From Candidatus Uhrbacteria bacterium (GTDB lineage: Bacteria > Patescibacteriota > Patescibacteriia > GWA2-47-26): a stretch of DNA of 64,000 bases. A program made the position numbers and the translations under genes. The DNA lies in the NCBI GenBank assembly GCA_016187515.1, contig JACPJN010000007.1, positions 140,336 to 204,335 on the forward strand, written 5' to 3'. The notes under the pieces are model-generated. The model saw only the letters and a list, made by a program, of their open reading frames with translations, made no database searches and was not told the origin of the DNA. Shown piece after piece: positions 6,246-47,923 of the stretch (position 1 is its first letter; every line of letters begins with the position of its first letter).

Positions 6246-6264
6246 AGTCCATTAGTGTAACACA

Positions 6265-7595: not shown

Positions 7596-7768
7596 ATATA
7601 TGGGTATTTACGATATTACTTTTAATTAAAGAGAGAATTATCCACACCTTTCGGTGTTTTACATGGTCTATTATAGCACTTTGTATAAAGAACAGAAACC
7701 CTACTTATCCACAACAAACTACCCTAAACTATGGGCCGCAGTCCACCCGCTTGTTCATTAAGACGTAA

Positions 7769-7797
7769 TTGACAACCCTCTTGTTACAATTCATACT
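7769..7797 (+). promoter_or_regulatory. candidate promoter (TTGACA, 17 nt, CATACT) for the 7824 gene
   Basis: -35 at 7769-7774, -10 at 7792-7797, in an AT-rich divergent intergenic region. Confidence 0.3.
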
Positions 7798-7823
7798 ACC
7801 CTACACGCTTACACGCGTAATAT

Positions 7824-10990: not shown

Positions 10991-11051
10991 AAACGGCTAA
11001 TTTAGGGCCATACGACTGTTTCGAGTATCCTATCAGATGGCGTTTTCTCTG

Positions 11052-17619: not shown

Positions 17620-18813
17620 CTATAGAATCTCCCCTGCGATCCGCTCCCGCACCACCGCAAGCGGAACACGGCGCAACGGAAGAAATATGAGATAAGAGAA
17701 GACGATGACCGCGAGAGACACCGAGTAGACCGCCTGTCCTTCAAAAAACACTGAAACAACAAGCGCCGCGGTAAACGCAATGCTTTGCACCATCCAAACC
17801 AGCGCCGAGACGGATTCGACATTTTGTTCGTTGGAGATATCGCCTACGAGCGCAAAGGTAATCGTGCGAGAAATTCCAAAGTTGAACGCGAGCAGAAGGA
17901 TCGCCGCCACCAGTACTGCCGGAACACGCGCGCCAAGCATAAGGCCAACCCCGGCAATGCTTAACACATACATCAGCGTGATCATGCCGCGCCGTCCGCG
18001 CAAATCAGAAAGTTTTCCAAATAGGTAAGCAAAAAGCATGGGCATGATATAAAAACTTCCCACAAGCAATCCAATCGCCCATACTCCAATGGTGCGCTTT
18101 ATCTCAAGAGGGACAATGCCGAGCATGAGCCCCTGAATGAAATTAAAAACAAACCAAATCGCCGACATCCGCAGCGCGGTACGACTGACCATCGCACGTC
18201 TCATCTCACGCCATTTATTGCTTTTCACCTCCACACGGATGTCATCGACGCGCCCAAGAAATGGCAATGCGACAAGCGGAACAAGCGCGAACAAGGCGAA
18301 CCCTCCGCGATAGCCCAGAATCGGAAGCAAGAGTCCCAGGAGCAATACTCCGCTTGCGGCGCCAACCGAAAAAAGCGTGGAAAAGAAACCGGCATTTGCG
18401 CCATACACCGCGGGGTCGCTGGCGCGAATAAGGTACGAATTCTGCGCGGTCCACAGCACCGCGCCAAACGCGCCAAGCAGCGCGGAAGCCGGATAAATCA
18501 GTGCCGGGTTTGCTGTCAGCAATGAAAGACAATAAAGCGTGTAAAAGAATACTGATCCAATCATGCTTCGCTTGGCGCCAATCTTGGAGATCACCACCGC
18601 GCCGATTGGATTTACCAGCGTGAAAACCGAGTACAGAATGATAAGCGAGACAAAACCAACTTGCTTGATCCCCGCCCCATCAAAAAACGTAGTCACGTAC
18701 TGCTGAACTCCGTCAAATCCGAAAAAGATAAGCAGGAATGCTGCGCTCAAGAGCTTGGCGTTTCGATTTATGGAATGTGCCATACTATTCCTCCGCCCCC
18801 ACCCTATCACCAC
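17620..18813 (-). CDS. MFS transporter
   Basis: About 12 TM helices with MFS-like charged loops. Confidence 0.65.
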   Translation of the reverse strand: MVIGWGRRNSMAHSINRNAKLLSAAFLLIFFGFDGVQQYVTTFFDGAGIKQVGFVSLIILYSVFTLVNPIGAVVISKIGAKRSMIGSVFFYTLYCLSLLTANPALIYPASALLGAFGAVLWTAQNSYLIRASDPAVYGANAGFFSTLFSVGAASGVLLLGLLLPILGYRGGFALFALVPLVALPFLGRVDDIRVEVKSNKWREMRRAMVSRTALRMSAIWFVFNFIQGLMLGIVPLEIKRTIGVWAIGLLVGSFYIMPMLFAYLFGKLSDLRGRRGMITLMYVLSIAGVGLMLGARVPAVLVAAILLLAFNFGISRTITFALVGDISNEQNVESVSALVWMVQSIAFTAALVVSVFFEGQAVYSVSLAVIVFSYLIFLPLRRVPLAVVRERIAGEIL

Positions 18814-18854
18814 GCGCGTCAGTTGTCAAAAACAAAAAGAATCCCGTATCCATC

Positions 18855-19280
18855 TTACTTGTGTGTGGCAATAAACTTTGTAATCGCTTCGATATATTGC
18901 GGGTACTCGCGCACCGCATCACTTATCGCGTCATATAATACATCGTAGCGGATCCCGTCATATTCATGAATAAGGCGATTGCGAAGGCCGGCGGACTTGG
19001 CGACTTCACCGGCAAATTTCGCCGTAAGTACTCCAAACTCTGCGAGTTTCAAAAACGAATCTTCATAAGTATCTGGGGGAGCTTTTCCTGATTCCACTAA
19101 AAGATGACTATTGATATCAATCGCGCGATTCACAATATGTTCAAGCAAATGCTCGGTAACATGCCGTGTGCGTGAGTCCTCTAAAAATACTTCCCAATGC
19201 GGTGGTTTTTCCCGCCGAAGTTCTTCAAGATCCGCCTTGATTAATTTTAGTTTTTGCTCCACAAATTCTCGATCAATCAT
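18855..19280 (-). CDS. hepT: HepT-family (DUF86) RNase toxin of a type VII toxin-antitoxin pair
   Basis: Rx4HxY motif (RNRLIHEYDG). About 140 aa. 4-bp overlap with the upstream MNT gene. Confidence 0.8.
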   Translation of the reverse strand: MIDREFVEQKLKLIKADLEELRREKPPHWEVFLEDSRTRHVTEHLLEHIVNRAIDINSHLLVESGKAPPDTYEDSFLKLAEFGVLTAKFAGEVAKSAGLRNRLIHEYDGIRYDVLYDAISDAVREYPQYIEAITKFIATHK

Positions 19281-19684
19281 ACCGCACGGAGATATTTACG
19301 AGTAAGCGCGCGGAGATGCGCAGTATCTAAATATTCAGAAACTGCTCGCGTTCGAAATTGTGCCGCGGTTCTAGGATCGCCGTATAAAAGTTTCGAGGCG
19401 CGCACCAGCTGCATTTTAAGAAGCGGACTCGTATGCGTCAAAACCGTCAAGTCAACATTTTTTTTAAATACACGAGTTAAATCAGAAATAAGATCCAATT
19501 CGTCTTTATTGGAAAGCGACTTGGTTGGGAGCACGGCAATATCAAAATCACTATCCGGCCTGGCATGACCTTTTACGTAAGACCCAAATGCAAAGATAAG
19601 CGCAAGATGATATTGCGCCGCAATGCGATCTATCTCTTTAGTCGGTATATTCTTTAACTTCTCCATATGGTGTAATTCTACCAT
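19277..19684 (-). CDS. mntA: MntA-family minimal nucleotidyltransferase antitoxin
   Basis: GSx10DxD motif (GSYVKGHARPDSDFDIAV). About 135 aa. Confidence 0.8.
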   Translation of the reverse strand: MVELHHMEKLKNIPTKEIDRIAAQYHLALIFAFGSYVKGHARPDSDFDIAVLPTKSLSNKDELDLISDLTRVFKKNVDLTVLTHTSPLLKMQLVRASKLLYGDPRTAAQFRTRAVSEYLDTAHLRALTRKYLRAV

Positions 19685-19699
19685 ACCTCCAATAATCAG

Positions 19700-19738
19700 T
19701 CAAAAACAAAAGCCGCCCGTGTTGTGCCACGCGCGGCA
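19700..19738 (-). terminator. intrinsic-terminator-like hairpin (GCCGC...GCGGC) with a downstream T-run on the minus strand, after the HAD hydrolase gene
   Basis: Plus strand reads caaaaacaaaagccgcccgtgttgtgccacgcgcggc. On the minus strand the hairpin is followed by TTTTGTTTTTG. Confidence 0.4.
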
Positions 19739-19760
19739 GTAACCCCCTATCGTTTGTGTA

Positions 19761-20399
19761 CTACTTGAACAATCCGTGCTCGCGCAGGGCGGCGCGGAGT
19801 TTTTGTACGCCCACAACCGGGGTGGGGTCGTACTGGTGCGTCTGCAAGCCGGCGCGGCGGGCCGCTTCGCAGTTGGCCAGCGCATCGTCCACAAGGAGAA
19901 TCGCGGATGGATCTTTGTCCTGCCAGTGAAGCGCCTTAAGGATCACCGGCCAGGCGCCTTCATCGGTCTTGGTCTTGCCGATGTCGTGTGAACGAACGAC
20001 CTGACCGAACCGCTTCTCAAGCTCGATGAGTTGCATCTCCCGCATGGTCTGCCACTTGTTGGTGGTCGTGACAAACGCAAGCGGAACCTTGACCATCTTG
20101 AGTCCATCAAGCAGGTTCACCACAACATCATCAACGATGTAAATGTGCGCATCGTGGGCGGCGCGCAACTCGATGTAGCCCAGCCAGCTGTTCTTGAGAT
20201 GGCGAGATCCGAGCCGGTTTGCAAACTCCGTACCAGTCAGCTTCCCTCGCGCGAAGTCGGCGTAATCCTCGTTCCGAAAAAATTGCACCGCGACATCGGG
20301 GGGGATGCCGTAGTCCTCGAGGATCGCCCATGTAATGGCATGCGTTGCGCGCACGATCACGTTGCCGACGTCAAAGAGCACAAATTGGATTTGGGTCAT
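19761..20399 (-). CDS. HAD-superfamily hydrolase (subfamily IA-like)
   Basis: Motif I VLFDVGNV (DxG). GC-rich gene. Confidence 0.65.
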   Translation of the reverse strand: MTQIQFVLFDVGNVIVRATHAITWAILEDYGIPPDVAVQFFRNEDYADFARGKLTGTEFANRLGSRHLKNSWLGYIELRAAHDAHIYIVDDVVVNLLDGLKMVKVPLAFVTTTNKWQTMREMQLIELEKRFGQVVRSHDIGKTKTDEGAWPVILKALHWQDKDPSAILLVDDALANCEAARRAGLQTHQYDPTPVVGVQKLRAALREHGLFK

Positions 20400-20539
20400 C
20401 GAGCTTCTCCTTGTCTGTTATTGTCATTTCGACCAAGCGAGCCGGGCGAGCGCGTGGAGAAATCTCTACCGCCAGGCATACCATGGTGTAGGGATCTCTC
20501 GCCCCGACTTTATGTCGGGGCTCGAGATGACGAAAATGG

Positions 20540-21547
20540 TTACTTCAGCCACCCCAGCGCCTCCAGCACGGCGCGGCCGATATGGGTTACGGCCAGCGCG
20601 CGGTTTTCGCCGTCAAGCACAAAGTGGTGACCAAAGTCATTCAGCCCGCCCTCGAAATTGAGGGCGAACACGACCGGCGAACGATCCGGACGCGGCGCGA
20701 TTGCGACCATGCGGCGGCGCATGGGCGTGCCGTTATGCGTCTCCAGGTCGCGGAACTTCCAACCCGTACCTTCAAGCTGCAACTTGGCTACGCTCGTGAT
20801 GGCAAAATCGCCAACCGGGCCGGCGGTTACAACACCGGCCTGGCCATTGAGAGTGTCGCGACCAACTGTAAGCAGCTCAAGTCCCACATCCCGGCTGAAA
20901 AAACTCGTAGACGGACTGACGTCTCCCTCTGGACGAGCAATGAAAGGATCCCACGCCTGCGTCTGCACGACGTCAAACTTTTCCTGATGATCTGTCAGCT
21001 CTCTGGGGAGCACGAAACGCGCCCGACCATCTTCCTTATACACCCCCATCTCCACCATCTCGCCGATCTGGTCGACCAAGAGATTTACGGTCTCGGCCAT
21101 TCCGCCGGACGGCTCGGCATCGTTTTGCCGCCCAGGCGCGCCGGTATTGCGCACGTGCATGATCGCGACCCACTCCGGAAACGCCGGCTCGGGCATGTAC
21201 CCGAAGTACTTTTCCAAAAGCCGCGACATGCGCCGCTCGTCCAGATGAGCGAGCGCCACCCACCGCACGAGCATCGCAGTTGCGCCGCCAAAGTGCGCCA
21301 CACCTTCAAACTTGCCCGGCTTGCGCTCCTTGTGGACGCGCTCAAGCGTATCCACGTCGAGTCCCGCTTTTCTTGCCGCATCCGGATCCGGCGGCTTGGG
21401 TGTGGTCATAACCTGCAGATCGCGCGTTTGCGCCACGATCCGACCGTCTTGCGTCACTTCTCCGAAAACGATTCCTTTGGTCCAGGGCATTGGTTTTCTC
21501 CTTGTGTTGTGGGGGGTTTCGTGGTTGTCAATGAAATGAACAAGCAT
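20540..21547 (-). CDS. hypothetical protein (GC-rich island); start may be at MPWTKG (21490)
   Basis: Balanced amino-acid composition on the minus strand. The overlapping plus-strand ORF 20582..21691 is Arg-rich and looks like an antisense artefact. Confidence 0.4.
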   Translation of the reverse strand: MLVHFIDNHETPHNTRRKPMPWTKGIVFGEVTQDGRIVAQTRDLQVMTTPKPPDPDAARKAGLDVDTLERVHKERKPGKFEGVAHFGGATAMLVRWVALAHLDERRMSRLLEKYFGYMPEPAFPEWVAIMHVRNTGAPGRQNDAEPSGGMAETVNLLVDQIGEMVEMGVYKEDGRARFVLPRELTDHQEKFDVVQTQAWDPFIARPEGDVSPSTSFFSRDVGLELLTVGRDTLNGQAGVVTAGPVGDFAITSVAKLQLEGTGWKFRDLETHNGTPMRRRMVAIAPRPDRSPVVFALNFEGGLNDFGHHFVLDGENRALAVTHIGRAVLEALGWLK

Positions 21548-21590
21548 CCCTTTTGGGATGCTTCTACCTTACATAAAACGCTACACCGTG

Positions 21591-22430
21591 TCAAGTCCAG
21601 GAAAGCATTGCCCGCACTGGCAGATGATCGGAAACGTCTACCTCCGGCGCATCAATGGACTCCACGCGAAAATGCGGCGAGGTGTAGATAAAGTCCACCA
21701 ATCGCCCGGCGCCGAGAACCTCCGCGGCGCGGTGCGTGCGAAGATTAAGGGTATTGTTGATGCCCGAACCATAGCAGGTATTACTCGCCGCCTTATCAAG
21801 AATCCGTATCACTTCCGAACCCGGCTCCATATTAAAATCACCGCCCAGTATAAATGGCTCATCGCCAAGTCCCCGCAGATACTCCGCGAGCAGGCGTGCC
21901 TGACGAATTTTTTCCGGCGTATCAACTGGAGCTTTGGTCCAAGCGCCATGAGTGGAAAGTATATGGAAAATACCCTCTCCCACCCCCTCTTCTCCCACCA
22001 CCCCCCGCCCCTCCTCTGGCAGGAGGGGAGACCCCCCTCGGGCAGGGGGAGAAAAACGCACGATTACGTCCAGCGCATTGCGCGGCATTTCCGGCCCGTC
22101 TTTTTCCCAAAGCAAATCCGAATAATCACGATATGCTTTTAACTGAACCGTATTACTGGCTAGGATTTTACCGCGAGCAAGCACCGCGTTACTTTCATAC
22201 GAAGATGAGTCGCCAATCAAACGAAACATCGGGGCTACAACCCCTTCAAGACCCAAGGCACTCCTAAGGTGCTGAAAAATATCCATACGCTGATCAGCCC
22301 AAAAGTTAACCCGCCCGCCAGAAACCTCCTGCATGGTAATGATATCCGGCTGCTCGCCGCGCAAAAACGAAATCAACTTATCCAAGAATTTACCGTGATA
22401 GATATTGATCTGAATGACTTTCAACCGCAT
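21591..22430 (-). CDS. endonuclease/exonuclease/phosphatase (EEP) family protein
   Basis: GDFNM and SDHLPV EEP motifs. Carries an in-frame G/P/E-rich insert from a palindromic element. Confidence 0.7.
   Translation of the reverse strand: MRLKVIQINIYHGKFLDKLISFLRGEQPDIITMQEVSGGRVNFWADQRMDIFQHLRSALGLEGVVAPMFRLIGDSSSYESNAVLARGKILASNTVQLKAYRDYSDLLWEKDGPEMPRNALDVIVRFSPPARGGSPLLPEEGRGVVGEEGVGEGIFHILSTHGAWTKAPVDTPEKIRQARLLAEYLRGLGDEPFILGGDFNMEPGSEVIRILDKAASNTCYGSGINNTLNLRTHRAAEVLGAGRLVDFIYTSPHFRVESIDAPEVDVSDHLPVRAMLSWT
21974..22054. repeat. composite CTCCCC-GGGGAG palindromic element copy d, in-frame inside the EEP CDS
   Basis: CCCCTCCT CTGGC AGGAGGGG at 22008-22028 and CCCCCCTC GGGCA GGGGGAG at 22032-22051. 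Confidence 0.6.
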
Positions 22431-22431: not shown

Positions 22432-23340
22432 CTAAATAATTTTATGGCGTCGCGCCAGCTCGGACATGGTGATTATTTTCCGGCCGCTTTGCAGGATATT
22501 CTCAATGGCCCGCTCCAAGTGGTGGATTTTTTCTTCCAAAGGCGTACCCAGCCGCTCTAGCGGAACTTTTCGTCCGGGATCAAGATCGCGGCGATCCATC
22601 AGATCCGCCGGATGGATTAAATAGTAAAACGCATCAATCTCCCGCAGGCAGGACTTAAGCAGTTGCAGATGCCGCTTCCAACCAATCATAAATCCCAGCG
22701 TATGCCAACAGGCGACTCGGAAGCGATTGGTCGGCAAGGGCAGGACGGTCACTCCTTGTTTCTGACATACTCCTCGCGTTCCAAACGCAAGCGTGAGCCA
22801 ATCCTTGCGCTTCAATATAGCAAAGAATTTTTTGTTTCCCAGATGATTGTACAGATTTTTTGCAATTACTGGAAACATGATCCATGAAGGAAATATGGAT
22901 GTATCATACTCATACCCGAGTTCGCTAAGCACTGTATAAAGTGTCCGAGACGTATTCCAGGCAGGTGAGATAAATCCTCTAGGCGCGCTCCCCGTAGTTT
23001 CTGCAATGGCATCGTGCGCGTGTTTCACATCTTCGTAGATCGCCGCGCGTGACATTGCGCCCAAATCCATCTGATGCAGCCAAGAATGGTTTCCTATCTC
23101 ATGTCCATCGCGTGCCCACGCGCGGACCCGCTCACGATTTTCGGGCTTTTCCAAATCCTTTCCCACCACATAAATACTGTATTTGAAATCATATTTGCGC
23201 GCGATCTGAAAAAAACGATCCGCGATTTGAAAAAAAGACGGGTCCGGGTATCCCGACGGCCATCCGTATGCCTCTCCAAGCGAGTCAAGATTCAAGCTAA
23301 TCGCGGCGTACTGCATACAATAGATCACTCCATTTAGCAA
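22432..23340 (-). CDS. polysaccharide deacetylase-like protein (CE4/NodB-related)
   Basis: HSWLH motif-2-like region. Family call is tentative. Confidence 0.45.
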   Translation of the reverse strand: MLNGVIYCMQYAAISLNLDSLGEAYGWPSGYPDPSFFQIADRFFQIARKYDFKYSIYVVGKDLEKPENRERVRAWARDGHEIGNHSWLHQMDLGAMSRAAIYEDVKHAHDAIAETTGSAPRGFISPAWNTSRTLYTVLSELGYEYDTSIFPSWIMFPVIAKNLYNHLGNKKFFAILKRKDWLTLAFGTRGVCQKQGVTVLPLPTNRFRVACWHTLGFMIGWKRHLQLLKSCLREIDAFYYLIHPADLMDRRDLDPGRKVPLERLGTPLEEKIHHLERAIENILQSGRKIITMSELARRHKII

Positions 23341-24082
23341 TGCTACAATCGTTCTTTTTTACATCCACGCGCGTCGGAAGGCCAGAATAACTAGATGGGA
23401 TATCCGGACGCGGGTTTTGATATTCTCCGCGCACAAGGCGCTCCACCGCGCGCGACGCAAGATCGGGGAAATCGCGAAACACTTGGATATAAAACCGCAG
23501 CATGGATTGGTTGCGAGCATATTCTTTCTGCACCAGGATTTTTCCGGCATCAATCTTCTCCTCTACCTGATGAAAGGTTACGCCAGTCGGCTGATTGTGC
23601 GCGTGCGCCCAAAAATACGGAAACAATCCGCGACAGGACGGCAACATGGCCGCGTGCTTGTTAATAATGCCGACTCGCGGCGCGCCAATAATTTCTTTTT
23701 TAAGCACCTGGCCCACGGTAATCAATACCACATCAATCTTATTATCTTTGATCCATTGCGTTACGGCAGGATCGTTGGGGGTATCGGCGGTATGCAGGGT
23801 TAGGCCGTGTTTATTCGACAACTGTCGCCAGGTTTTTATACCGGAGCATAACTGCACTAGACGAGTTTTAGACGCATACAATCCAAGAATCACAAAATTC
23901 CAAAACCCGAAAACTCGCCGGTACCATAATGAGATCCGCGCACCTTTGAATTTCCCCAGCTGATCCGGAAACACATACAATCCCACTACCCGATACTGCT
24001 TTTGCAACTCTGGGATGGCGCGCTTCCAGGCCGGAAACGCCCAAGTATAATCATTGGCTGTAAAAATGGCAAGGCGGATCAT
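23297..24082 (-). CDS. formyltransferase-domain protein (Fmt/ArnA-N-like; putative sugar N-formyltransferase)
   Basis: HAAMLPSCRG (SLLPxxRG-like) and GVTFHQVEEKIDAGKIL motifs. Start set at MIRLAIF to avoid overlap with the next gene. Confidence 0.6.
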   Translation of the reverse strand: MIRLAIFTANDYTWAFPAWKRAIPELQKQYRVVGLYVFPDQLGKFKGARISLWYRRVFGFWNFVILGLYASKTRLVQLCSGIKTWRQLSNKHGLTLHTADTPNDPAVTQWIKDNKIDVVLITVGQVLKKEIIGAPRVGIINKHAAMLPSCRGLFPYFWAHAHNQPTGVTFHQVEEKIDAGKILVQKEYARNQSMLRFYIQVFRDFPDLASRAVERLVRGEYQNPRPDIPSSYSGLPTRVDVKKNDCSIAKWSDLLYAVRRD

Positions 24083-24099
24083 GTCTAAACAGTTCACGA

Positions 24100-25251
24100 T
24101 TAAAATCCAAAAAATCCTAAAATCTTTTTCGCTGTCCGTTTCATCTTGGAAGGCCAAAATACTCTTCGACTGCCATCCGTATAAACACTCTTCTCTAACA
24201 CCATGGTGCGGTAGTATTCCAATGTTTGTTTTTCTTTAACGTATTCTTTAAAAAATGGGGAGTGATCAGCAATAATAAGATCAAGCTCTTTCGGACTTTC
24301 CGTAAATGCGGCGTGATTTTCAAAATAGTGCGCGTCCAGGGTGCGATAGTAAATACCGTTTTTTTTGATTACGGCCCAAATATTGATGGTTTGATTCACC
24401 CGCGGCGCAAAATCAGTATGCTCCTCCGCGATAAGATAGGGCCGCTCCTTTTCGGAAAACAAAGAAATTCCGTCAATATTCTCCGCCACCGGCGCCCCGA
24501 TAATTTCGCACAGCGTCGGATAAATATCCATGACGGATGAAAACCGTTCGCTGACGACCAGGCCGCGGTCAGCTTTCTTTCTGTGCAATAAAAAAGTATT
24601 GGTGCGAGCTTTATTTAAAAGCAGATAAGCCGGTTCTTTCTTAAACTCGCGGCGCAGCTTAAAGCCATGATCGGAGAAAATCAGAAGGTGATCAAAGTCG
24701 TCAACATTCAGATCGCGGCGAAGTATCCGTAGGGAATTCGCGACTTTTTGATGTCCTTTTTTGACAAACCGCGGATAATAATCAAAATCATCCATCGCAT
24801 AGTGAAAATCTGCTAAAGAAATATAGACCAAACTTTTATCTTTAATGTCCAATCCTTGTAAAAATTTCTCCAGATTCAGATCTGTATTGTGTACTCCTCT
24901 GGAGTTAAATCCCGGGGGGAATACCCCATTCCTTTTTTCATTCGGATTATTGAAAAAAGATAAATTAAAGCCATGTTCCAACAAAATTTCCAGGATATTT
25001 TTTCCGTCATTTTTCAAAAAAAATCCCGGATATTTTATCCGTTTATCACAGCCATTTTTGTAAGGATACTTTCCTGACCAAACACACGCCAAACTCCTGG
25101 CCGTGTCCGGGGCCGGCGTAAAACAATTTCGATATAATGTCCCGCCGATCTTTTCAAATTCTTCATCCAGCGACCCCTTCTCCCGAGTGCGGTTCACGAC
25201 ATGCAGCATCTCCGGCCGCAGCATGTCTATAAAAATAATGAGAATCTTCAT
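24100..25251 (-). CDS. alkaline-phosphatase superfamily protein (sulfatase/phospho-headgroup transferase-like)
   Basis: IFIDMLRPEM N-terminal metal-site region and FSDHGF motif. AT-rich gene. Confidence 0.5.
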   Translation of the reverse strand: MKILIIFIDMLRPEMLHVVNRTREKGSLDEEFEKIGGTLYRNCFTPAPDTARSLACVWSGKYPYKNGCDKRIKYPGFFLKNDGKNILEILLEHGFNLSFFNNPNEKRNGVFPPGFNSRGVHNTDLNLEKFLQGLDIKDKSLVYISLADFHYAMDDFDYYPRFVKKGHQKVANSLRILRRDLNVDDFDHLLIFSDHGFKLRREFKKEPAYLLLNKARTNTFLLHRKKADRGLVVSERFSSVMDIYPTLCEIIGAPVAENIDGISLFSEKERPYLIAEEHTDFAPRVNQTINIWAVIKKNGIYYRTLDAHYFENHAAFTESPKELDLIIADHSPFFKEYVKEKQTLEYYRTMVLEKSVYTDGSRRVFWPSKMKRTAKKILGFFGF

Positions 25252-25940
25252 ACCCGCATTACAACATTAAAGTTAAACGGGCTATTGCCGTAACCCTGTA
25301 TCTCCTGTCTGGATATTTCCACCTCCGCGCCATAGTGCGCTCCCAATTCTTCAAACCATTCCTTACTGTAGTATAAACGGGGCAAATCCTTGTACTTCTG
25401 ATCATACTCGTTTGGGCTAAGCTTTCCCCGCCGTACATTTTCCGCCTCCATCTCCAGCGCTTTGTTTGGCACATCCAAAACCGCTATTGATTTTTTTGCT
25501 TTTTTTATCATCCGCGCAATAACTGCTTCGGCGTAGGCAAGTGTGGAAAAATACTGAAACACGCTGTTGGAAAAGACCACGTCATACAAGGGTTCCTCTT
25601 CCAGAGCCACTGCCTCGCGACAGATAAAGTCACTTCCCATGGTCTTACACGCCTCTTCAATAAGTACAGGTGAATAATCTAATCCCCCAACCCGGTGACC
25701 TGACTGCCAAAACGGATACAAAAACGCTCCGCTCCCGCATCCTACTTCATACAACGAATCGCCTGCTTTTATGCCAAGGTTTTCGGCAATGCGTTTCGCG
25801 TACATTTCCCAATCCGCGACTTCTACCGCACCGGCTCCGGTATCAAAACCATCCAGGCGAATCAAACGCTCGAGCGTATTTATCGCCGCGGGACTGGCGG
25901 ACCGTGAGTCCCAAATTTTTTTCCACCGATTACTGTCCAT
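25248..25940 (-). CDS. class I SAM-dependent methyltransferase
   Basis: YEVGCGSGAF motif I. Confidence 0.7.
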   Translation of the reverse strand: MDSNRWKKIWDSRSASPAAINTLERLIRLDGFDTGAGAVEVADWEMYAKRIAENLGIKAGDSLYEVGCGSGAFLYPFWQSGHRVGGLDYSPVLIEEACKTMGSDFICREAVALEEEPLYDVVFSNSVFQYFSTLAYAEAVIARMIKKAKKSIAVLDVPNKALEMEAENVRRGKLSPNEYDQKYKDLPRLYYSKEWFEELGAHYGAEVEISRQEIQGYGNSPFNFNVVMRV

Positions 25941-25943
25941 AAG

Positions 25944-26690
25944 TTATTTTGTAAGACGCGGATAAATAACCTCTCGCGCGCGCTTTAAATCCTCTTCACG
26001 ATCAATCTCAATCCACGGAAAAGCTGTAGGGAGCGTATAGACCGGCAAGTCCTCGGTCGTAGCGCGCATAACACACTCTTCATAATGATAAAGGCGTTCC
26101 CCTCGCGCGTAATCGTCTTCGGCGGTTTTAAAAAGGTGTTCTAAAAAATTCGCGGAAAAACGGGAAATGCCCACCATCTCGCCGCAGGCCTGACGCTTTT
26201 GATCATCGGATAATTGCTTTCCCAGCGCGCGAAGTTGATTCCGTTTATCAGCGCACACATACACTTCATCTCCTGAACCGGAAAGCGGTGAGACCAGCAT
26301 TACATTCCGGTGCGGCGAGCGAAGCGCGATATCAATAAGCTGTTGATCATAGAGAAGATCGGATTCCAGAAGAAGCACCGCGCTATTTTTAACCGCCTCT
26401 TTTGTCTTTGAAAACGAATACATACTGCCCGTCACCGCGTATTCTGCGTTTAAAATATAGCGCAACGGCATTCCTTGAAAATTATCCCCAAAACGAGTTT
26501 GGATCATCTCATGAAGGTATCCTGCCGCGATAACAACTTCGGACATACCGGCTTGCTTGAGCGCTAGAAAAGATCGTTCGAGCAAAGTTTTACCGTCAAC
26601 TTCCAAAAGACCCTTGGGCAGTTTTTGAGTCCGCGGTCGCAAACGCAGTCCCATCCCGGCCGCGAGAATAACCGCTTTTAAATTGCTCAT
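25944..26690 (-). CDS. nucleotidyltransferase (LicC/AEP cytidylyltransferase-like)
   Basis: AVILAAGMGLRLRP (GxGxRL) sugar/phospho-headgroup nucleotidyltransferase motif. Confidence 0.65.
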   Translation of the reverse strand: MSNLKAVILAAGMGLRLRPRTQKLPKGLLEVDGKTLLERSFLALKQAGMSEVVIAAGYLHEMIQTRFGDNFQGMPLRYILNAEYAVTGSMYSFSKTKEAVKNSAVLLLESDLLYDQQLIDIALRSPHRNVMLVSPLSGSGDEVYVCADKRNQLRALGKQLSDDQKRQACGEMVGISRFSANFLEHLFKTAEDDYARGERLYHYEECVMRATTEDLPVYTLPTAFPWIEIDREEDLKRAREVIYPRLTK

Positions 26691-27769
26691 ACAACCTCTT
26701 GCATGGCTACAAACAGCCGGTCAATATCAGTTTTCTCAATCTCTCCCATATTGGCAATCCGAAACATCACTTTGCCCGCCTCTCCTTGCCCGGCATAGAT
26801 TATAAATCCGGCGGCCTTTAAATGATCATGCAAAGTTTGGTAGGACATACCGTGGGGCAGACGAAACGCAGTAAGCGTGGATGCCAGCATTCCTTCTTCC
26901 AGATACATTTTTATCCCCAGCTCCTGCGCGCGGGTTCGGATATATTGGGCGAGCTGACGGTATTTTTCATGGCGCGCCCTCCAGCCGCCTTGTTCCTGAA
27001 ATTCCCGTAACGCTTCATCCAGCGCATAGAGCACTTGAACCGTCTGAGTAAATGGCGTTCCGCCGCGTTCCTGCTCGCGATAATATCCTCGCAGATCAAG
27101 GTATACTGAACGCGGCTGAAAATCAATCTGCTCCAGTAATTCTCGCCGAACGACTACAAAAGATATTCCCGGGATGCCATGCAGACATTTATTGGCTGTC
27201 GCGCAAACCGCGCCGATATTCCATTCGTCAAAATTCAGCTCTTCTCCGCCAAAGGAGCTCACTCCGTCGATCAATAACACTTTCCCATAAGTCCGCGCAA
27301 GCTCGGAGATCATGCCAAGATCATTTAGCCGTCCGGTGGTGGTTTCATGATGGATAGCCGCAATATGGCTAATTGCCGGATCGCTTTTTAAGGCCTCCTC
27401 AATTCTATACCGATCCAGCTCTTGTCCCCACTCATGCTCAACCATCGTAAAAGCAATTCCATGGGCCTTGGCTATTGCCGCGATACGCTCACCATAGACC
27501 CCATTTTTAAGCATCAGCAGTTTTCCGTTTGGCGGAACAATACTTGTCACCATCGCCTCCACCGCGGCAGTGCCCGATCCGGTTAAAATAACGCTCGTGT
27601 AACGCGCTTTGGGTAATCCATACACCGCAAGCAGGCCTTGTCGCACCGCTTCTTGCAAAACCGAAAATTCATTCTCGCGATGGCACATATCGGACTGCAT
27701 AAGCGCGCGGCGCACACGCTCGCTAACATTGACCGGCCCGGGATTAAGCAGAATCATTTTTTTGTCCAT
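26687..27769 (-). CDS. 2-aminoethylphosphonate:pyruvate aminotransferase (class V aminotransferase, PhnW/AepZ-like)
   Basis: LLNPGPVNVSERV N-terminus typical of class V/PhnW. Operon context with pepM and ppd. Confidence 0.7.
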   Translation of the reverse strand: MDKKMILLNPGPVNVSERVRRALMQSDMCHRENEFSVLQEAVRQGLLAVYGLPKARYTSVILTGSGTAAVEAMVTSIVPPNGKLLMLKNGVYGERIAAIAKAHGIAFTMVEHEWGQELDRYRIEEALKSDPAISHIAAIHHETTTGRLNDLGMISELARTYGKVLLIDGVSSFGGEELNFDEWNIGAVCATANKCLHGIPGISFVVVRRELLEQIDFQPRSVYLDLRGYYREQERGGTPFTQTVQVLYALDEALREFQEQGGWRARHEKYRQLAQYIRTRAQELGIKMYLEEGMLASTLTAFRLPHGMSYQTLHDHLKAAGFIIYAGQGEAGKVMFRIANMGEIEKTDIDRLFVAMQEVV

Positions 27770-27770
27770 A

Positions 27771-28901
27771 TCACTTACCGTTTAAAAATTGCATAAAGGC
27801 CGCTTTATTTTGCTGCGGCGTAGTGGTTGGTCGCCCGAGATTTGCGCGCGCGCCCTTGCGTACGCGCACCTCTAAAAGACATGGCCCTTTTTGCAAACGT
27901 AATTCGTTAAGTGCGCCGACCAGTTGCGCGGCGGTCTCTACACACCAAGCTTTTTTATAAGCGCACGCCAAGGCAACTTTGGCTATATCAACTTTAAAAC
28001 CCGCGGTGGGCTGACCCCCTACTGAATCGTGGGCGCCGTTGTTAATCACAATGTGCTTCAAATTCTCCCGCGCTTGCGCGCCAATTACTGCCAGCGCCCC
28101 CATATGCATAATCAACGCTCCATCACCGTCAACACAATATACCTGGCGATCCGGTTTAGCAAGCGCGATCGCAAGCGCGATCGAGGAAGAATGGCCCATC
28201 GATCCAACCGTTAAAAAATCGCGATGATGACCTTGTCCTTTGGCTTCTCGATATTCGTAAAGCTCACGGGACGCCATTCCGGTGGTTGAGACTATTACAT
28301 CGTTTTCTCCCAAGGAATCTACAATGCGCTTAAGCGCATCTTCGCGAGTCATCTCCAAATGAGTTTCAACCGGCGCGCCTATCGGATACGCTTCAAAAAC
28401 GCCTTTTCGTACGATAAGCGCGTATGGCTGACTCTCGGATTGCATTATTTTAAAAGCACGCGCCAGCGCGGCATTGGCACCCTCCGGATCCGATGGAAGA
28501 ATCTCAAATGGAATACCAAGCGTTTCAAAAAGTGTAGTGGTAACCTCCCCTTGCTTAAGATGCTGGGGCTCATCATGGACGCCCGGCTCACCGCGCCAAC
28601 CAATCAAAAGTAGCATGGGGATCCCGTATACTTTTGGATCGGTAAGCGAAGTTAAGGGGTTCACAATATTGCCTTGACCGGCATTTTGGAGATAAACCAG
28701 GGCCGGATTGCCGGTTGCCAAATAATGCCCGGCGGCAAGCCCAACGGCGTTACCCTCATTGGCCGCGATAATATGGTTCTCTTGCGAAACCTCCGCGCTC
28801 ACGCACGCGCAGAACTCTTTCAGCAGGGAATCCGGCACGCCGGTAAAAAAATTTATACCCTGCGCCCGTAACCTGACGACAAAATCTTTCGGGGATATCA
28901 T
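27771..28901 (-). CDS. ppd: phosphonopyruvate decarboxylase (ThDP-dependent)
   Basis: Ppd-like N-terminus with [10 protein letters not shown], plus the ThDP-binding motif [14 protein letters not shown]. Confidence 0.78.
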
Positions 28902-30550
28902 AATTGCCTTTGATAAGTAAGCCCTTGGGTAAAAGTCGAAGCGCGTTCAACATCCGGTAAATTATTTACGTCCAGCCAGTCACCGCTTATATACATCACT
29001 CGCGGCGGATGTTCGAAAGTCACAAGATCATCTAAAAGATCCGTCACGCTAAAATTCGGAAAATCTGAACGACTTTGCAGGCGCGTCAGGGACTCTTTTA
29101 GCAAGCCCAGCCCTGGTCCGCGCACCAGCAGGGCGCCGATCCATTGTCCATGGGCCTGCCGGAAGGACTCGCCCGCCGCGCTGTTCAGGCATTTCACAAG
29201 GCGCGCGTCTGGACTAAACACGCTGCGCTCGTCCGGAACATTGCAGACCACATAATCACCTTTGACCTTGTCCGTAATCTTCTGACGCACATTCGAATCT
29301 ACCACAATCGTTATTGGAGCATCCGATTCAATAAGATCGCGTACAATATACCGCCGTAACAGTAAATCTCCATACAAAATCAGCGTATTGTCTTTAACTT
29401 TGGGAAGCGCGCAAGCCAAGGTAGCCAGATCTTTGGAATGCTCAAAATCAGGATTATGCAGGAGTGTGATTCCGTCAATGGTAATTGTTTCTGGTTTGTA
29501 TCCGGCCACAACCGCGATATCACGGATACCGTGGCTTCGCAAATCTTCCACCAACCGCGCCAGTATTGGTTTACCGCCAATCGGCAACATGGCCTTGGGG
29601 CGCGCTTGGGTAAGTTCCCCTAATTCACTGCCCCGCGAGGCCGCTAAAATGACAGCGTTGGGCTGCTTTGTAAAAGAGGGTTGGAGATATTTTTCTTCCG
29701 CTGCTATAAGTTCTTCGGACTTTTGTAAACGAAATATCTCTTTGACTGGAACAATGTGATCTTCTACATTCGTGAGTGACTCTTCTTTGTAAACCTTAGC
29801 CGCGGTTTGCTGCATCGCGGAGATTGCGGCGCGCAACAAATGATTGGCCCAAATGACCACGCTAATTTTATGGGCGCGAAACTGCTGGGTCGGCGTGCTA
29901 TAATACATGGTTGGCACAATTATGAGCGGCGCGCGGCCGTCCCAGGTGCGGGCAAATTCAAAAATTTCTCCAGCGTCTTTTTTCTTACTATGCATCAAAA
30001 TGGCATCCGCCCCGGCGGCGCGATAGGCCTCTGCCCGTCGCATCGCCTCCGCCAGCCCCCAGCCTGCAATCAGCGCCTCGACCCGCGCGACTAAACAGAA
30101 ATTCGGATCTTGCTGGGTATCTTTGGCCGCTTTAATTTTCCCGCAAAATTCGGCAATCTCTGCCAGCGGTTGGGCTTCCCCGTTAATAAAGCTGTTGGTC
30201 TTTGGAAATAATTTATCCTCAATGCACAACCCCGCAACTCCGCGCTGTTCCAACTTTTTTACCAGACGGCGCACACTATTAAAATCACCGTAACCAGTAT
30301 CCCCGTCAACCAGGATGGGAATACTGGTCGCGTCGCTCATGAATTCCAGCGTCTCAAGAACCTGCGTCCAAGACGCCTCATTATTGTCGCGCACTCCAAG
30401 AGCCGCCGACATCGTCAGCCCGCTGGCCCAGATTCCTGGAAATCCGGCTTCCTCCACAATCTTGGCGGACAAACCATTATGCGCTTCCATTAGAAAATTA
30501 AGACCATTGCCGGTCAAGAGATCTCGCAGTTGTGCCGCCCTGCTTTTCAT
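28898..30550 (-). CDS. pepM: phosphoenolpyruvate phosphomutase fused to a C-terminal nucleotidyltransferase domain
   Basis: ICL/PEPM-family motifs ([20 protein letters not shown]). C-terminal [34 protein letters not shown]-transferase domain. Confidence 0.8.
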
Positions 30551-30558: not shown

Positions 30559-31743
30559 CTACAAGCCATCTTCCCGATACGATCGTTCAATCCAAAGATG
30601 GTGGTCCTCCGGCTTATGCATGCGGAAGGCGTCATTGTCCAGCCGCCAAAGCAGATCGTCAGCAATGCGCTTGGACGCCAGCCCATCACCTAAGCCATGG
30701 TTCCACTTTTTTCCGTACAGTCCTTCAAATTTTTGAAACACTGTCTCGGCCGGATATTTTCCCGGCTCCGCCGGGTCAAACTTAACTGATGATCCAACAT
30801 CATATACCTGCGGTCGTTCAGTGGACTTGCGCATCTGAAGCGATGGTACTTGCAAGACGCAGGTTTCTTCAACAATCGTACCTGAATCGGTAATTACTCC
30901 GCGACTGTTTACCATCAATGCCACAATTTCCATATAGCCAATCGGATCTACCATAATCACATTGCGAGGAAGCGCCAGTCCATACTCTTTAAGCACTTTT
31001 TGCGTGCGATAGCTCAAGGGCAGATAAATCTTGCGCTTGGTACTGCCAATCAACTTCAAAATTGCCTCAAACGAGGAGCGGATATGCACATTTTCACGGC
31101 GATGCCAAGTCATTAAATAATATTCGCCTTTTTCCAAACCGCGCGATTGGAAAAATTCCGGCGTGGCCAGCGCGTCAAACTTGGCTTTTTGCTTGAAATA
31201 ATAAGTATCCAGAATCTCCACAATCGGATTACCGTAGGTAATCACAATATTTTTTGGATTGAGCCCGGCAAGCATGCCTTGATATTTGTATTCCGGAAAA
31301 TAGGTGTAAATCACATCCGAAAGCTGATCAATAAGATTGCGGTACTTCGTTTCCGGCATGCGCCAGTCGTACGCGCTCCAACATCCTTCAAAATGCACAA
31401 TCGGGATATTTAACTGCGCCGCGGCAATCGACCCTACTACGGTATTGGTATCGCCTAAAAACATTACGGCCTCGGGCTGCAATTTTTCAAGCACCGGATA
31501 GAGTTTTCTTAACACATCCGAAGCGACCTCGGCATCATTGTCGCCGGTTGCTCCCAGTTCAATGGAGGGGCGCGGTACGTCCAATTCTTGAAAAAAAACT
31601 TCCTTCAGATTATCCGAGTAATGCTGGCCAGACCAAATAAAAACAATCTCATGCTTGTCCTGCGCAAACAGTTGTTTTAGTACGAGAGAAGCCCGGATAA
31701 TATCCGGACGAATACCGAGAATGATGGCGAGTTTCTTCTTCAT
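30559..31743 (-). CDS. wecB: UDP-N-acetylglucosamine 2-epimerase (non-hydrolysing)
   Basis: N-terminus [15 protein letters not shown] and overall Epimerase_2 pattern. Confidence 0.78.
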
Positions 31744-47878: not shown

Positions 47879-47923
47879 ACATTCATACCTCCAGCCTACT
47901 ATAATAACTCTACTTTTTAATGC

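Follow-up and report, generated by a model that had tools for sequence, protein, structure and literature searches.

Among known systems, those closest to the locus described here are the phosphonyl tailoring (Pnt) clusters that Rice et al. 2019 (PMC6697681) describe from Treponema denticola, Atopobium rimae and Olsenella uli. In these, Ppm, Ppd and AEPT, together with a cytidylyltransferase of the PF12804 family, lead to CMP-AEP, with a nucleotidyltransferase fused to Ppm, a second one nearby, and adjoining glycan genes. All of these features recur in our locus, as do the two amine-contacting Glu residues named for PntC (PMC6697681, section 8). However, the Pnt clusters are known to come with glycosyltransferases or with phosphotransferases of the LicD-like kind, whereas in our locus we found no LicD but a sulfatase-fold protein and a methyltransferase following PntC, which stands alone and is not fused to AEPT as in T. 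denticola. The same three-gene AEP core is found in the AEPT cluster families of Li and Horsman 2022 (PMC8942020), an inventory built on complete RefSeq genomes. Its Burkholderiales_CDP-OH family has two PntCs, one fused to Ppm, but additionally carries phospholipid genes and a 2OG oxygenase, neither of which occurs in our locus, and its Selenomonas GCF 400 has 'multiple sulfatases' beside the AEP core, as we see a sulfatase-family neighbour. In that paper N-methylation is not discussed, sulfatases are given no role, and the terms Patescibacteria, 'candidate phyla' and 'phyla' do not occur in the text.

The same logic, in which a PF12804 enzyme activates a small zwitterionic phosphorus-containing head group with cytidine before its transfer to a glycan of the cell surface, underlies LicA/LicC/LicD phosphocholine decoration in Streptococcus pneumoniae and Haemophilus, although here the head group would be synthesised de novo and contain a C-P bond, and LicA, LicB and LicD are lacking. 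The phosphoethanolamine N-methyltransferases known from plants, Plasmodium and nematodes (5WP4, 5WP5, 3UJ7, 4KRH) resemble our methyltransferase only in the generic SAM-binding core, and the substrate we propose is a phosphonate, possibly as its CMP conjugate. EptA/MCR-1, EptC and LtaS, which transfer phospho-alcohol head groups such as phosphoethanolamine, the phosphate counterpart of AEP, share with our sulfatase-like protein the metal site and a nucleophilic Thr placed where a helix begins.

The host, a Candidatus Uhrbacteria bacterium, is an uncultivated member of the CPR with a tiny genome; database proteins identical to the methyltransferase and to the sulfatase-like protein bear this name. 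From a stretch of 64,000 nucleotides (the window) we consider it likely that a phosphonoglycan head-group operon, in which we include the roles proposed below for the methyltransferase and the sulfatase-like protein, lies within a cell-surface glycan locus of about 50 kb.

The operon and its surroundings

Five minus-strand genes proposed in a sequence-only reading to lie in operon order were recovered at precisely the coordinates it gave (28898-30550, 550 aa; 27771-28901; 26687-27769; 25944-26690; 25248-25940), and the family assignments were likewise confirmed. Neighbouring genes overlap or nearly abut, with spacings of -4 to +8 nt, consistent with a single operon. The tightly packed run reaches past 25248-30550, downstream to 21591 and upstream at least to 31743:

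30559..31743, minus strand: UDP-GlcNAc 2-epimerase-like gene (PF02350, 202.7 bits; TIGR00236 wecB, 176.5 bits, under the cut-off of 210)
29675..30550, minus strand: PEP mutase (PepM) domain, aa 1-292 of the fusion protein (TIGR02320)
28898..29674, minus strand: C-terminal nucleotidyltransferase domain NT1, aa 293-550 of the PepM fusion (PF12804)
27771..28901, minus strand: phosphonopyruvate decarboxylase (Ppd), ThDP-dependent (TIGR03297)
26687..27769, minus strand: 2-aminoethylphosphonate aminotransferase (AEPT), PLP-dependent (TIGR03301)
25944..26690, minus strand: stand-alone PntC-type cytidylyltransferase NT2 (PF12804 and PF00483; 6PD1 match)
25248..25940, minus strand: class I SAM methyltransferase (MT; generic methyltransferase domains)
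24100..25251, minus strand: sulfatase-like (alkaline-phosphatase-superfamily) protein (PF00884, 37.8 bits)
23297..24097, minus strand: formyltransferase-family gene (PF00551, 54.3 bits)
22432..23316, minus strand: polysaccharide deacetylase-family gene (PF01522, 61.2 bits; gene calls in L165)
21591..22430, minus strand: Exo_endo_phos (endonuclease/exonuclease/phosphatase family) gene (PF03372 on the identical L165 gene and L001 relatives)
21542..21563, minus strand: terminator-like hairpin, 9-bp stem, 28 nt past the last gene (Exo_endo_phos)

The epimerase-like gene, 8 nt upstream of PepM and syntenic in Uhrbacteria loci L001-L004 and L165, is probably part of the PepM transcription unit. Downstream, the run continues with the sulfatase-like, formyltransferase, deacetylase and Exo_endo_phos genes. 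The formyltransferase gene, syntenic in L001-L003 and L169, starts at 24097 in gene calls on identical contigs (L165), and its longest ORF extends to 24157. The Exo_endo_phos gene, 1 nt from the deacetylase gene and the final member of the run, has no NCBIfam match. The hairpin beyond it is consistent with an operon end and is read no further than that, because the hairpin scan overall did not rise above shuffled controls.

Glycosyltransferases and sugar-nucleotide enzymes lie to either side of the operon, and the window encodes GT2, GT4, a WecA-like phosphoglycosyl transferase, a Wzy-like protein, DUF2079, DegT and an NDP-hexose dehydratase. With so large a glycan-biosynthesis locus around the operon, a phosphonoglycan is the natural prediction, in line with the phosphonate-decorated surface glycan foreseen from the sequence alone. 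That such a pathway would be unusual for this lineage is a fair remark, as the host belongs to the CPR and we found no paper on an AEP operon in a CPR host, although public Uhrbacteria assemblies (GCA_0017914xx-series accessions) already label the genes as PEP mutase. Syntenic loci of 87% identity are also present in Uhrbacteria assemblies.

The AEP core and the two nucleotidyltransferases

Equivalog status of PepM, Ppd and AEPT was judged by score over curated model cut-offs. The PepM domain reaches 394 bits with TIGR02320 (cut-off 319.6) and matches Mytilus PepM 1M1B at 6.9e-129, with 66% identity over 287 gap-free residues. The motif [10 protein letters not shown] is present at aa 111, and every active-site residue of Mytilus PepM that was compared is kept. 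Loss of the catalytic residues had been named as the observation that would speak against this assignment, and the domain is instead, by its sequence, a true PepM. Ppd scores 504.5 bits with TIGR03297 (cut-off 312.5) and carries the ThDP motif GDG-x25-NN at aa 259, which had been suggested as a check. AEPT scores 409 bits with the TIGR03301 PhnW-AepZ model (cut-off 360.8) and under the cut-off of the catabolic-type model TIGR02326, and has Lys194 within ATANKCLHG. With the core above equivalog cut-offs and a cytidylyltransferase present, the predicted products make up a complete route from PEP through phosphonopyruvate (PnPy) and phosphonoacetaldehyde (PnAA) to AEP, followed by its cytidylyl activation, in agreement with the canonical route to CMP-AEP proposed earlier. 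The three-enzyme core is itself an ordinary, well-known pathway.

The PepM-nucleotidyltransferase fusion pointed out earlier is not special: PF12804 is the commonest domain fused to PEP mutase, carried by 33% of these enzymes (PMC6697681, PMC8942020), and clusters in which a free nucleotidyltransferase accompanies a fused one have already been described (Rice 2019, PMC6697681; PMC8942020). NT1 matches PF12804 (60.6 bits, aa 299-422) and matches T. denticola PntC (Tde-PntC) at just 5.2e-6; it has LAASRGSEL in place of GxGxRL, without equivalents of PntC Glu104 and Glu196. NT2, previously termed LicC-like, has the Tde-PntC domain 6PD1 as its closest solved relative (2.8e-31, 112 bits) and matches LicC 1JYK more weakly (1.1e-16). 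It retains LLESDL and SGDEVY and keeps both Glu equivalents (Asp/Asp in LicC), that of Glu196 lying in HYEEC (EYEHA in Tde-PntC), and has WIEID for WREID. By these comparisons NT2, not NT1, corresponds to the characterised AEP cytidylyltransferase PntC.

The methyltransferase

MT (230 aa) matches only generic class I SAM methyltransferase domains in Pfam, and its family comprises 406 homologues. Gene context was counted in 54 loci, one per species, with adequate flanks. PepM, Ppd and an aminotransferase occur together in 33 of these and a nucleotidyltransferase fused to a CobD-like decarboxylase in 15, only 5 having neither; an NTase or CyTase is present in 48/54, and every locus with PepM and Ppd has an amine-generating enzyme. 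The linkage spans Firmicutes, Beta-, Gamma- and Alphaproteobacteria, Campylobacterales, Nitrospirota, Ignavibacteriota, Balneolales, cyanobacteria and one methanogen, and holds where the NTase family changes from PF12804 to PF01467. The order PepM-NT, Ppd, AEPT, NT2, MT is repeated in five loci (L012, L035, L047, L058, L064). The gene is strain-variable, being present in L165-L168 and L169 and missing from the 87%-identical Uhrbacteria loci L001-L003, L085 and L086.

The sequence-only reading took MT and the second activating enzyme as signs of a modified head group. For MT this has gained comparative support from the 48 loci, whereas NT2 occurs also in relatives without MT and so provides no such evidence. 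The context supports, without proving, the N-methylation that had been suggested, and we lean slightly towards MT methylating the nitrogen of AEP, CMP-AEP or an already attached residue to give an N-methyl-AEP-type head group. Gene context fits N- and phosphonate O-methylation equally well, and any form of AEP as target. Heavy methylation before activation is disfavoured, as NT2 resembles Tde-PntC, an enzyme with a small pocket for which exclusion of the trimethylated phosphocholine has been demonstrated.

The sulfatase-like protein

The sulfatase-like gene, which overlaps the MT gene by 4 nt, was overlooked in the earlier reading and is the most interesting unassigned part of the locus. In its alignment the CxPxR formylglycine motif is absent; Thr50 occupies the column of the formylglycine Cys/Ser, and the family has Thr/Ser at this nucleophile position. 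In the predicted structure (pLDDT 94.5) strand beta1 begins at residue 2, which leaves no signal peptide and marks the protein as cytoplasmic. The family is small, with about 230 clusters (about 229 at E<=1e-30). Among 32 metagenomic loci having at least 6 kb upstream, PepM is present in 25 and missing in 7, at a median distance of 4.5 kb, and an NTase or CyTase is present in 27; in L099 and one JGI contig the gene directly follows PntC/AEPT. No TagF-like or LicD match was seen in any locus of the family with three tblastn query proteins, and the gene is never among the MT loci bearing TagF-like or LicD genes. The protein and other transferases do not exclude each other strictly, as L099 has a LicD-like ORF 10 kb away. 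Within the window, ORFs of at least 180 aa include no LicD, Glyphos_transf or CDP-alcohol transferase. We tentatively regard the protein as a candidate phosphonyl (AEP) transferase, at somewhat less than even likelihood.

Discussion

From the sequence matches, the PepM domain would convert PEP to phosphonopyruvate, and Ppd would decarboxylate this to phosphonoacetaldehyde and CO2, drawing forward the unfavourable mutase equilibrium. The class-V aminotransferase would then form AEP, and NT2 (25944-26690) would combine AEP with CTP to give CMP-AEP. For the remaining steps we infer that MT methylates the amine of AEP, of CMP-AEP or of the residue once attached, relatives without MT presumably bearing plain AEP, and that the sulfatase-fold protein, through its Thr50/metal site, detaches the phosphonyl group of the CMP conjugate and hands it to a sugar hydroxyl of a nucleotide- or lipid-linked glycan precursor. 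The protein would thus stand in for the LicD or TagF-like enzymes of other clusters, and the formyltransferase, deacetylase and epimerase may tailor the acceptor amino-sugar.

Other assignments for MT seem less plausible. O-methyl phosphoramidate on Campylobacter capsules and DhpI in dehydrophos biosynthesis provide analogues for methylation of the remaining P-OH, before or after transfer, to a neutral methyl phosphonate ester with the nitrogen untouched, and O-methyltransferases such as ChlM and DhpI score almost as well against MT as N-methyltransferases do, the fold and profile matches being generic; nevertheless we think this unlikely. Still more improbable is action on a glycan sugar, whether N,N-dimethylation of an amino-sugar as by DesVI or O-methylation, as an incidental adjacency fails to explain why the family lies beside aminoethyl-phosph(on)ate and cytidylyltransferase genes in 48/54 loci across very different glycan contexts and phyla.

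An appreciable though minority likelihood attaches to the sulfatase-like protein being a hydrolase, either of phosphonate monoesters or phosphodiesters, to trim, recycle or proofread intermediates, or CMP-AEP pyrophosphatase-like. Its nearest structural relatives are indeed hydrolases, namely S1 sulfatases and phosphonate monoester hydrolase, rather than the transferases EptA or LtaS. However, it lacks the formylglycine motif that sulfatases and phosphonate monoester hydrolases require, has at that position the Thr/Ser of superfamily transferases and diesterases, is cytoplasmic, and fills the slot right after the activating/methylating enzyme that TagF-like or LicD proteins hold elsewhere, in a window where we found no known head-group transferase family. 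Were it a hydrolase, the real transferase would be another, unrecognised protein of the locus; the products of 38369-39955, 57510-60967 and the Exo_endo_phos gene lack an assignment and could serve. A phosphonolipid or a diffusible small-molecule phosphonate as the product, rather than a glycan decoration, appears to us very doubtful: AEP clusters make phosphonolipids too, and sulfatase-bearing Selenomonas clusters were once classed 'Group 4 phosphonolipids', but we found no lipid-synthesis, CDP-alcohol transferase, NRPS or ATP-grasp genes, and both flanks hold glycosyltransferases, sugar-nucleotide enzymes, the Wzy-like protein and the WecA-like initiating transferase.

Returning to the proposed phosphonoglycan operon and its probably methylated head group, two points are new: the occurrence of this MT family in cassettes for aminoethyl-phosph(on)ate synthesis and cytidylyl activation across many phyla, and the linkage of the sulfatase-like family to PEP mutase.

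The phosphonate operon and its surroundings

A six-frame ORF list returns five minus-strand genes at exactly the coordinates claimed for them in the sequence-only reading, and the family scans agree with that set. Because adjacent genes either share 4 nt or are separated by gaps of 1-8 nt, we regard them as one tightly coupled unit, and the packed run continues past 25248 through a sulfatase-like gene, a formyltransferase, a polysaccharide deacetylase and an Exo_endo_phos gene to an end at 21591. The sulfatase-like gene is missing from the earlier list and is translationally coupled to the methyltransferase gene. The region's best terminator-like hairpin follows the last gene; it is weak evidence of an operon end, the only hairpin of note from a promoter and terminator scan that does not rise above shuffles, as its counts exceed the shuffled controls by little more than one standard deviation.

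Features of the phosphonate operon
28898-29674, minus strand: nucleotidyltransferase domain (NT1) fused to PEP mutase (PepM)
27771-28901, minus strand: phosphonopyruvate decarboxylase (Ppd); TIGR03297, 504.5 bits against a cut-off of 312.5
26687-27769, minus strand: 2-aminoethylphosphonate (AEP) aminotransferase (AEPT), PhnW-AepZ type; TIGR03301, 409.4 bits against a cut-off of 360.8
25944-26690, minus strand: nucleotidyltransferase (NT2); PF12804/PF00483
25248-25940, minus strand: class I SAM methyltransferase (MT); generic domain matches only
24100-25251, minus strand: sulfatase-family gene; 4-nt overlap with MT
8 nt upstream of the packed run: UDP-GlcNAc 2-epimerase-like gene

PepM scores 394.4 bits against TIGR02320, which has a curated equivalog cut-off of 319.55, and the models of its paralogues (phosphonopyruvate hydrolase, methylisocitrate lyase and CPEP mutase) all remain below their own cut-offs. 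It aligns with the Mytilus edulis PEP mutase (1M1B) ungapped over 287 residues (E 6.9e-129, 66% identity), carries the EDKxxxxxNS motif at residue 111, and is identical to the Mytilus enzyme at W44, S46, G47, L48, D58, D85, D87, E114, K120, N122, S123, R159 and H190 (Mytilus numbering), the 13 positions which we take, from the Mytilus structures, to be the active-site set including the Mg2+ and substrate residues. As the motif and all of these residues are in place, the enzyme does not appear to be an isocitrate-lyase-family paralogue, the outcome that would have undone the earlier proposal, and by sequence membership it is assigned as a mutase predicted to convert PEP to phosphonopyruvate. 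The ThDP-binding motif sought in Ppd (GDG-x(24-27)-NN) is present as GDG-x25-NN at residue 259, and AEPT has the PLP-binding Lys194. A catabolic (PhnW) reading of the aminotransferase was rejected because PepM and Ppd are present, TIGR03301 is above and TIGR02326 below its cut-off, and none of PhnX, PhnA and PhnY was found.

The four core proteins fall within their expected families in each of the comparisons applied, the cluster is predicted to work like the Pnt pathway of Rice et al., and we have little doubt that the core pathway to CMP-AEP is present. There is nothing new in this core, which is very ordinary and holds little surprise. Among motif-bearing PEP mutases 59.5% have further domains fused to them, the most frequent partner is PF12804 (33%), and clusters with one Ppm-fused nucleotidyltransferase and another one or two genes away are explicitly reported (Rice et al. 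2019, PMC6697681). The PEP_mutase plus PF12804 architecture is found in all of the best 120 listed of at least 8000 homologues.

Exact copies of both MT and the sulfatase-like protein occur on a 318-kb contig under the name 'Candidatus Uhrbacteria bacterium', the PepM fusion shares 87% identity with its counterpart in Candidatus Uhrbacteria RIFCSPLOWO2_01_FULL_47_24, and the locus is syntenic in four Uhrbacteria assemblies; on these grounds the host is a CPR/Patescibacteria bacterium. Pfam scans of every ORF of at least 180 aa place the operon in one glycan-biosynthesis region that occupies approximately 5.4-56 kb of the window and encodes GT2 and GT4 glycosyltransferases, a WecA/MraY-family initiating transferase, a Wzy-like protein, DUF2079, asparagine synthase, a DegT aminotransferase, an NDP-hexose 2,3-dehydratase, a sugar C-methyltransferase, two formyltransferases, two deacetylases, and FemAB and GNAT proteins. 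No lipid-synthesis or natural-product-type genes were seen among these ORFs, as might have pointed to a phosphonolipid or a small molecule. Because the operon is embedded in this region, a phosphonate-decorated surface glycan, as predicted from the sequence, is the natural product of the locus, and we consider a glycan destination highly probable.

Several other features of the region may be recorded here. The second formyltransferase and second polysaccharide deacetylase lie with a FemAB-family protein, a GNAT and a heparinase II/III-like protein at 46095-51394 (minus strand), an unusual mix of genes that suggests peptide-bridged or N-formylated amino-sugars. A 335-aa ORF without a Pfam or NCBIfam match (20540-21547, minus strand) lies in an island of GC 0.575, within 20001-22000, in a locus of about 0.49 and has a long overlapping ORF on its opposite strand; unannotated genes of 307-316 aa occupy the equivalent position in two Uhrbacteria relatives, L001 and L165. 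ORFs of 361-588 aa without a Pfam match lie within or beside the glycan locus at 38369-39955, 57510-59204 and 59201-60967 (minus strand), 7824-9557 (plus strand) and 9905-10990 (minus strand). The L165 contig, otherwise identical to the window, has an NTP_transf_2/HepT-like toxin-antitoxin pair at 12173-12609 after a HAD hydrolase gene, and the counterpart stretch of the window, downstream of 19761, is a gap at 18813-19761 that holds no ORF of at least 180 aa.

Assignment of the cytidylyltransferase step

The CMP-AEP step had been assigned to the PepM-fused domain, with the second enzyme described as LicC-like, and our comparisons reverse this. Among solved structures NT2 is most like the Tde1415 PntC domain of T. 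denticola (6PD1; 2.8e-31, 112 bits), with S. pneumoniae LicC far behind at 1.1e-16. In the Tde-PntC structure Glu104 and Glu196 contact the amine of AEP, and LicC has Asp there (PMC6697681). NT2 keeps Glu at both positions, with the LLESDL block and the Glu196 equivalent conserved and the SGDEVY and W-x-EID blocks also retained. With its PF12804 fold, a PntC as nearest characterised relative and both glutamates, it belongs on sequence with PntC and not with LicC, having Glu rather than Asp at the D105 and D192 equivalents and matching PntC far better.

NT1 matches 6PD1 at only 5e-6. In it and in its orthologues the Glu104 site reads Y-G-D, the Glu196 site reads S/T-x-D and the GxGxRL NTP-binding loop is replaced by LAASRGSEL, so that both the glutamates and the canonical loop are missing, and NT1 should not be filed as PntC but as a PF12804 domain. 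The two cytidylyltransferases that Rice et al. characterised kinetically are a monomer (Ari1348) and an AEPT fusion (Tde1415), neither of which is presented as a Ppm fusion (PMC6697681). Five aligned PepM-fused nucleotidyltransferases (28898-29674, minus strand, of the window and those of the comparison loci L001, L005, L012 and L064) share LAA[SG][RQ]G.EL, one of them with a one-residue gap, and have neither a canonical GxGxRL loop nor the glutamates with which PntC binds the amine; it may be that the domain most often fused to PepM is no AEP cytidylyltransferase at all. NT2 is also found in relatives that lack MT, and therefore the second activating enzyme is no evidence for a modified head group, as had been supposed.

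Distribution and possible role of the methyltransferase

MT varies between strains. The window carries it, as do eleven contigs of one sequencing project with an identical MT (the four shown having the same gene order) and a 70%-identity relative, L169, where the MT and sulfatase-like pair has an identical 4-nt overlap; the 87%-identity Uhrbacteria loci lack it, and in them NT2 is followed directly by the sulfatase-family gene. Recent acquisition of MT was considered but receives no support from composition, as its GC (0.483) and GC3 match those of its neighbours, the low-GC gene of the cluster being the sulfatase-like gene (0.418). Gain in the window strain and loss in the RIFCSP Uhrbacteria lineage are equally likely. 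The L169 cluster (553-13552, about 70% identity) has in addition a TauD-family 2OG oxygenase, a second methyltransferase, a GMC oxidoreductase and an FGE-sulfatase-domain protein; because of these extra genes the head group appears to be further diversified, perhaps by hydroxylation, between related strains.

The MT family is coherent, consisting of proteins of about 230 aa with 406 homologues, and its carriers include Firmicutes, several proteobacterial classes, Campylobacterales, Nitrospirota, Ignavibacteriota, Balneolales, cyanobacteria and a Methanoregula MAG. We surveyed 80 loci with 10-kb flanks from a one-genome-per-species collection, searching them with the window proteins and with the proteins of two alternative contexts, and base the counts on the 54 with adequate flanks. 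PepM, Ppd and an AEPT-like aminotransferase occur together in 33 of these, and in 15 others PepM is absent and a PF12804 nucleotidyltransferase is fused to a CobD-like phospho-amino-acid decarboxylase (best match TIGR01140, about 165 bits, below its cut-off). Neither context is seen in 5/54, which come from the lower part of the ranking (33-43% identity), and a nucleotidyl- or cytidylyltransferase is present in 48/54. The window order PepM-NT, Ppd, AEPT, NT2, MT recurs in five loci from Beta- and Gammaproteobacteria and Nitrospirota. In Methylophilus, Methylotenera and others the nucleotidyltransferase, both PepM-fused and free, is swapped for an unrelated PF01467 cytidylyltransferase; MT keeps its slot in these clusters and is followed by a TagF-like glycerophosphotransferase-family gene.

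Cytidine-conjugate activation of a 2-aminoethyl-phosph(on)ate is common to these cassettes, and an amine-generating enzyme is always present; N-methylation of the amine is for that reason the most economical function for MT. We think it likely that MT acts on the head group, rather than for example on a sugar of the glycan, and lean slightly towards nitrogen as the specific target. The N-methylation of AEP proposed from the sequence is thus favoured by a gene context that points to an amine head group, although methylation of the phosphonate oxygen is equally compatible with that context; we nevertheless consider the oxygen quite improbable as the target, and fold and PDB profile searches of MT do not discriminate N- from O- or C-methyltransferases. 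The substrate may be free AEP, CMP-AEP or AEP already attached, and one or more methyl groups may be added, although the small, PntC-like pocket of NT2 argues against trimethylation before activation. N-methyl-AEP is reported to be common in nature, the sources cited being eukaryotic, and bacteria have dedicated oxidases for it (PMC10590968); dehydrofosmidomycin has a trimethyl-AEP intermediate, with mention of 'putative SAM-dependent N-methyltransferases' (PMC9296572).

Two of the other settings of MT are of interest in themselves. The cluster of Methylophilus methylotrophus DSM 46235 (L038, 2679-19698; CyTase-PepM, Ppd, aminotransferase, CyTase, methyltransferase, TagF-like) adjoins flagellin, FliD and FlaG genes and a gene for a 2493-aa TPR/glycosyltransferase-like protein, which suggests that in Methylophilaceae (methyl)AEP is used to modify flagellin. 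In PepM-less loci from cyanobacteria, Vibrio and others (L017, 8091-11859; L028, 9998-13133; also L010, L011, L016, L019, L044 and others) MT lies beside the PF12804 nucleotidyltransferase-CobD-like fusion and a TagF-like or LicD gene, and these may constitute a de novo route to an N-methyl-phosphoethanolamine or phosphocholine-type surface decoration.

A sulfatase-fold protein as candidate transferase

A word-indexed search finds 93 homologues of the sulfatase-like protein (24100-25251, minus strand), and among 1.84 billion representatives the family comprises 229 clusters at 50% identity (E<=1e-30), with a clear gap before the generic sulfatases. Invariant or near-invariant are D9, P48-D49, R52, D148, H150, D187, S193-D194-H195-G196, R216, E276-D277 and H278; position 50, enclosed by D49 and R52, is usually Thr, with Ser in 4 of the 37 aligned members. 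The AlphaFold model (pLDDT 94.5) is a compact single domain of 383 aa with the sulfatase fold of S1 sulfatases and phosphonate monoester hydrolases; ranked below these nearest relatives are PbgA, LtaS (25.6), EptC (22.4), NPPs and MCR-1/EptA (about 20). Two independent HMMER alignments place Thr50 at the formylglycine-forming Cys/Ser of sulfatases, and the C/S-x-P-x-R motif is not retained, the family consensus being PDT(P/A)RS. Despite its sulfatase fold, formylglycine chemistry would thus be impossible for the protein, because Thr50 occupies the Cys/Ser position and the motif Pro and Arg are replaced. A Thr/Ser nucleophile is a hallmark of the phosphoryl-transfer branch of the superfamily. 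D9, T50 and D194-H195, invariant or nearly so in the family, lie at the expected secondary-structure positions in the model and may correspond to the Thr nucleophile and the Asp/Glu plus Asp-His metal site of EptA/LtaS.

In EptA, MCR-1, EptC and LtaS an N-terminal multi-pass membrane domain is combined with extracytoplasmic catalysis and a lipid donor, whereas here that membrane domain is missing. Because the first core strand (beta1) begins at residue 2 of the model, leaving no N-terminal signal peptide or membrane domain, the protein is predicted to be cytoplasmic, in the same compartment as CMP-AEP. Some homologues, P0251 and P0252, are extended at the C-terminus by a segment like the NDP-sugar C-methyltransferase C-terminal domain (PF08484; 29.5 bits in P0251 and a weak sub-threshold match in P0252), which hints at a nucleotide-sugar ligand.

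A metagenome scan with a 15-sequence alignment supplied 80 loci, and we base the counts on the 32 with at least 6 kb upstream. PepM is present in 25/32, at a median distance of 4.5 kb, Ppd in 24/32 and a nucleotidyltransferase or CyTase in 27/32; the order is PepM, Ppd, PntC, AEPT, sulfatase-like in the locus L099 and NTase, AEPT, sulfatase-like in a JGI contig. TagF-like and LicD queries (three tblastn queries only) gave no match in the sulfatase-like loci, and no sulfatase-like gene is found in those of the 54 MT loci that carry a TagF-like (25) or LicD (3) gene. The window's ORFs of at least 180 aa likewise include no LicD, Glyphos_transf or CDP-alcohol transferase. The exclusion is not strict, as L099 has a LicD-like ORF 10 kb away. 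Li and Horsman note of the Selenomonas AEP clusters only that they 'encode multiple sulfatases' (PMC8942020); one member of the present family is from Selenomonadaceae.

The sulfatase-like protein therefore sits at the position expected of a head-group transferase. In the model we propose, it would take the phosphonyl group off CMP-(methyl)AEP and, by way of a Thr50 intermediate, hand it on to the hydroxyl of a sugar, and we put the chance that it is the transferase a little short of even. Its closest folds favour a hydrolase acting in editing or recycling, a serious rival if a somewhat doubtful one, and a protein of the window that has no assignment could be the actual transferase.

Discussion

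Compared with the characterised Pnt examples, the present cluster differs in its CPR host lineage, in an additional, putative head-group methyltransferase, and in a Thr-type sulfatase-fold protein instead of LicD or TagF-like transferases. Neither the methyltransferase nor the sulfatase-fold protein is confined to the window: both belong to uncharacterised families that recur as partners of phosphonate clusters across many bacteria. Taken jointly, the claims that MT founds a family of aminoethyl-phosph(on)ate N-methyltransferases widespread in bacteria and archaea, and that the sulfatase-fold protein is the missing cytoplasmic transferase that carries the phosphonyl group from CMP-AEP to the glycan, are unlikely to hold in full. 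If they do, MT would be a bacterial source of N-methyl-AEP and, in the PepM-less clusters, part of a de novo route to phosphocholine-like decorations; the two proteins would define a LicD-independent phosphonoglycan pathway, by which an ultra-small CPR bacterium would vary its surface between strains.

Those who defined the pathway call what follows CMP-AEP enigmatic (PMC6697681). A literature search that covered few subscription journals, so that absence is weak evidence, returned nothing specific on an AEP transferase, on AEP N-methyltransferases in surface clusters or on phosphonates in CPR/Patescibacteria; it found no assigned biosynthetic N-methyltransferase for surface phosphonates, and bacterial AEP N-methylation in the dehydrofosmidomycin case only. 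The sulfatase-like family, being small and discrete and tracking PepM in its loci, is a concrete and testable candidate for the transfer step, and since the MT family occurs in cultivable species (Paenibacillus, Methylophilus, Vibrio) the N-methylation hypothesis can be tested without the CPR host. Both the fate of the head group after CMP-AEP and the maker of N-methyl-AEP are in this way open to direct test. The genomes of CPR bacteria are small, and most of these organisms are believed to need a microbial host (PMC12577380); a costly, strain-variable phosphonate on the surface glycan of such an organism would bear on host attachment and on resistance to enzymes or phage.
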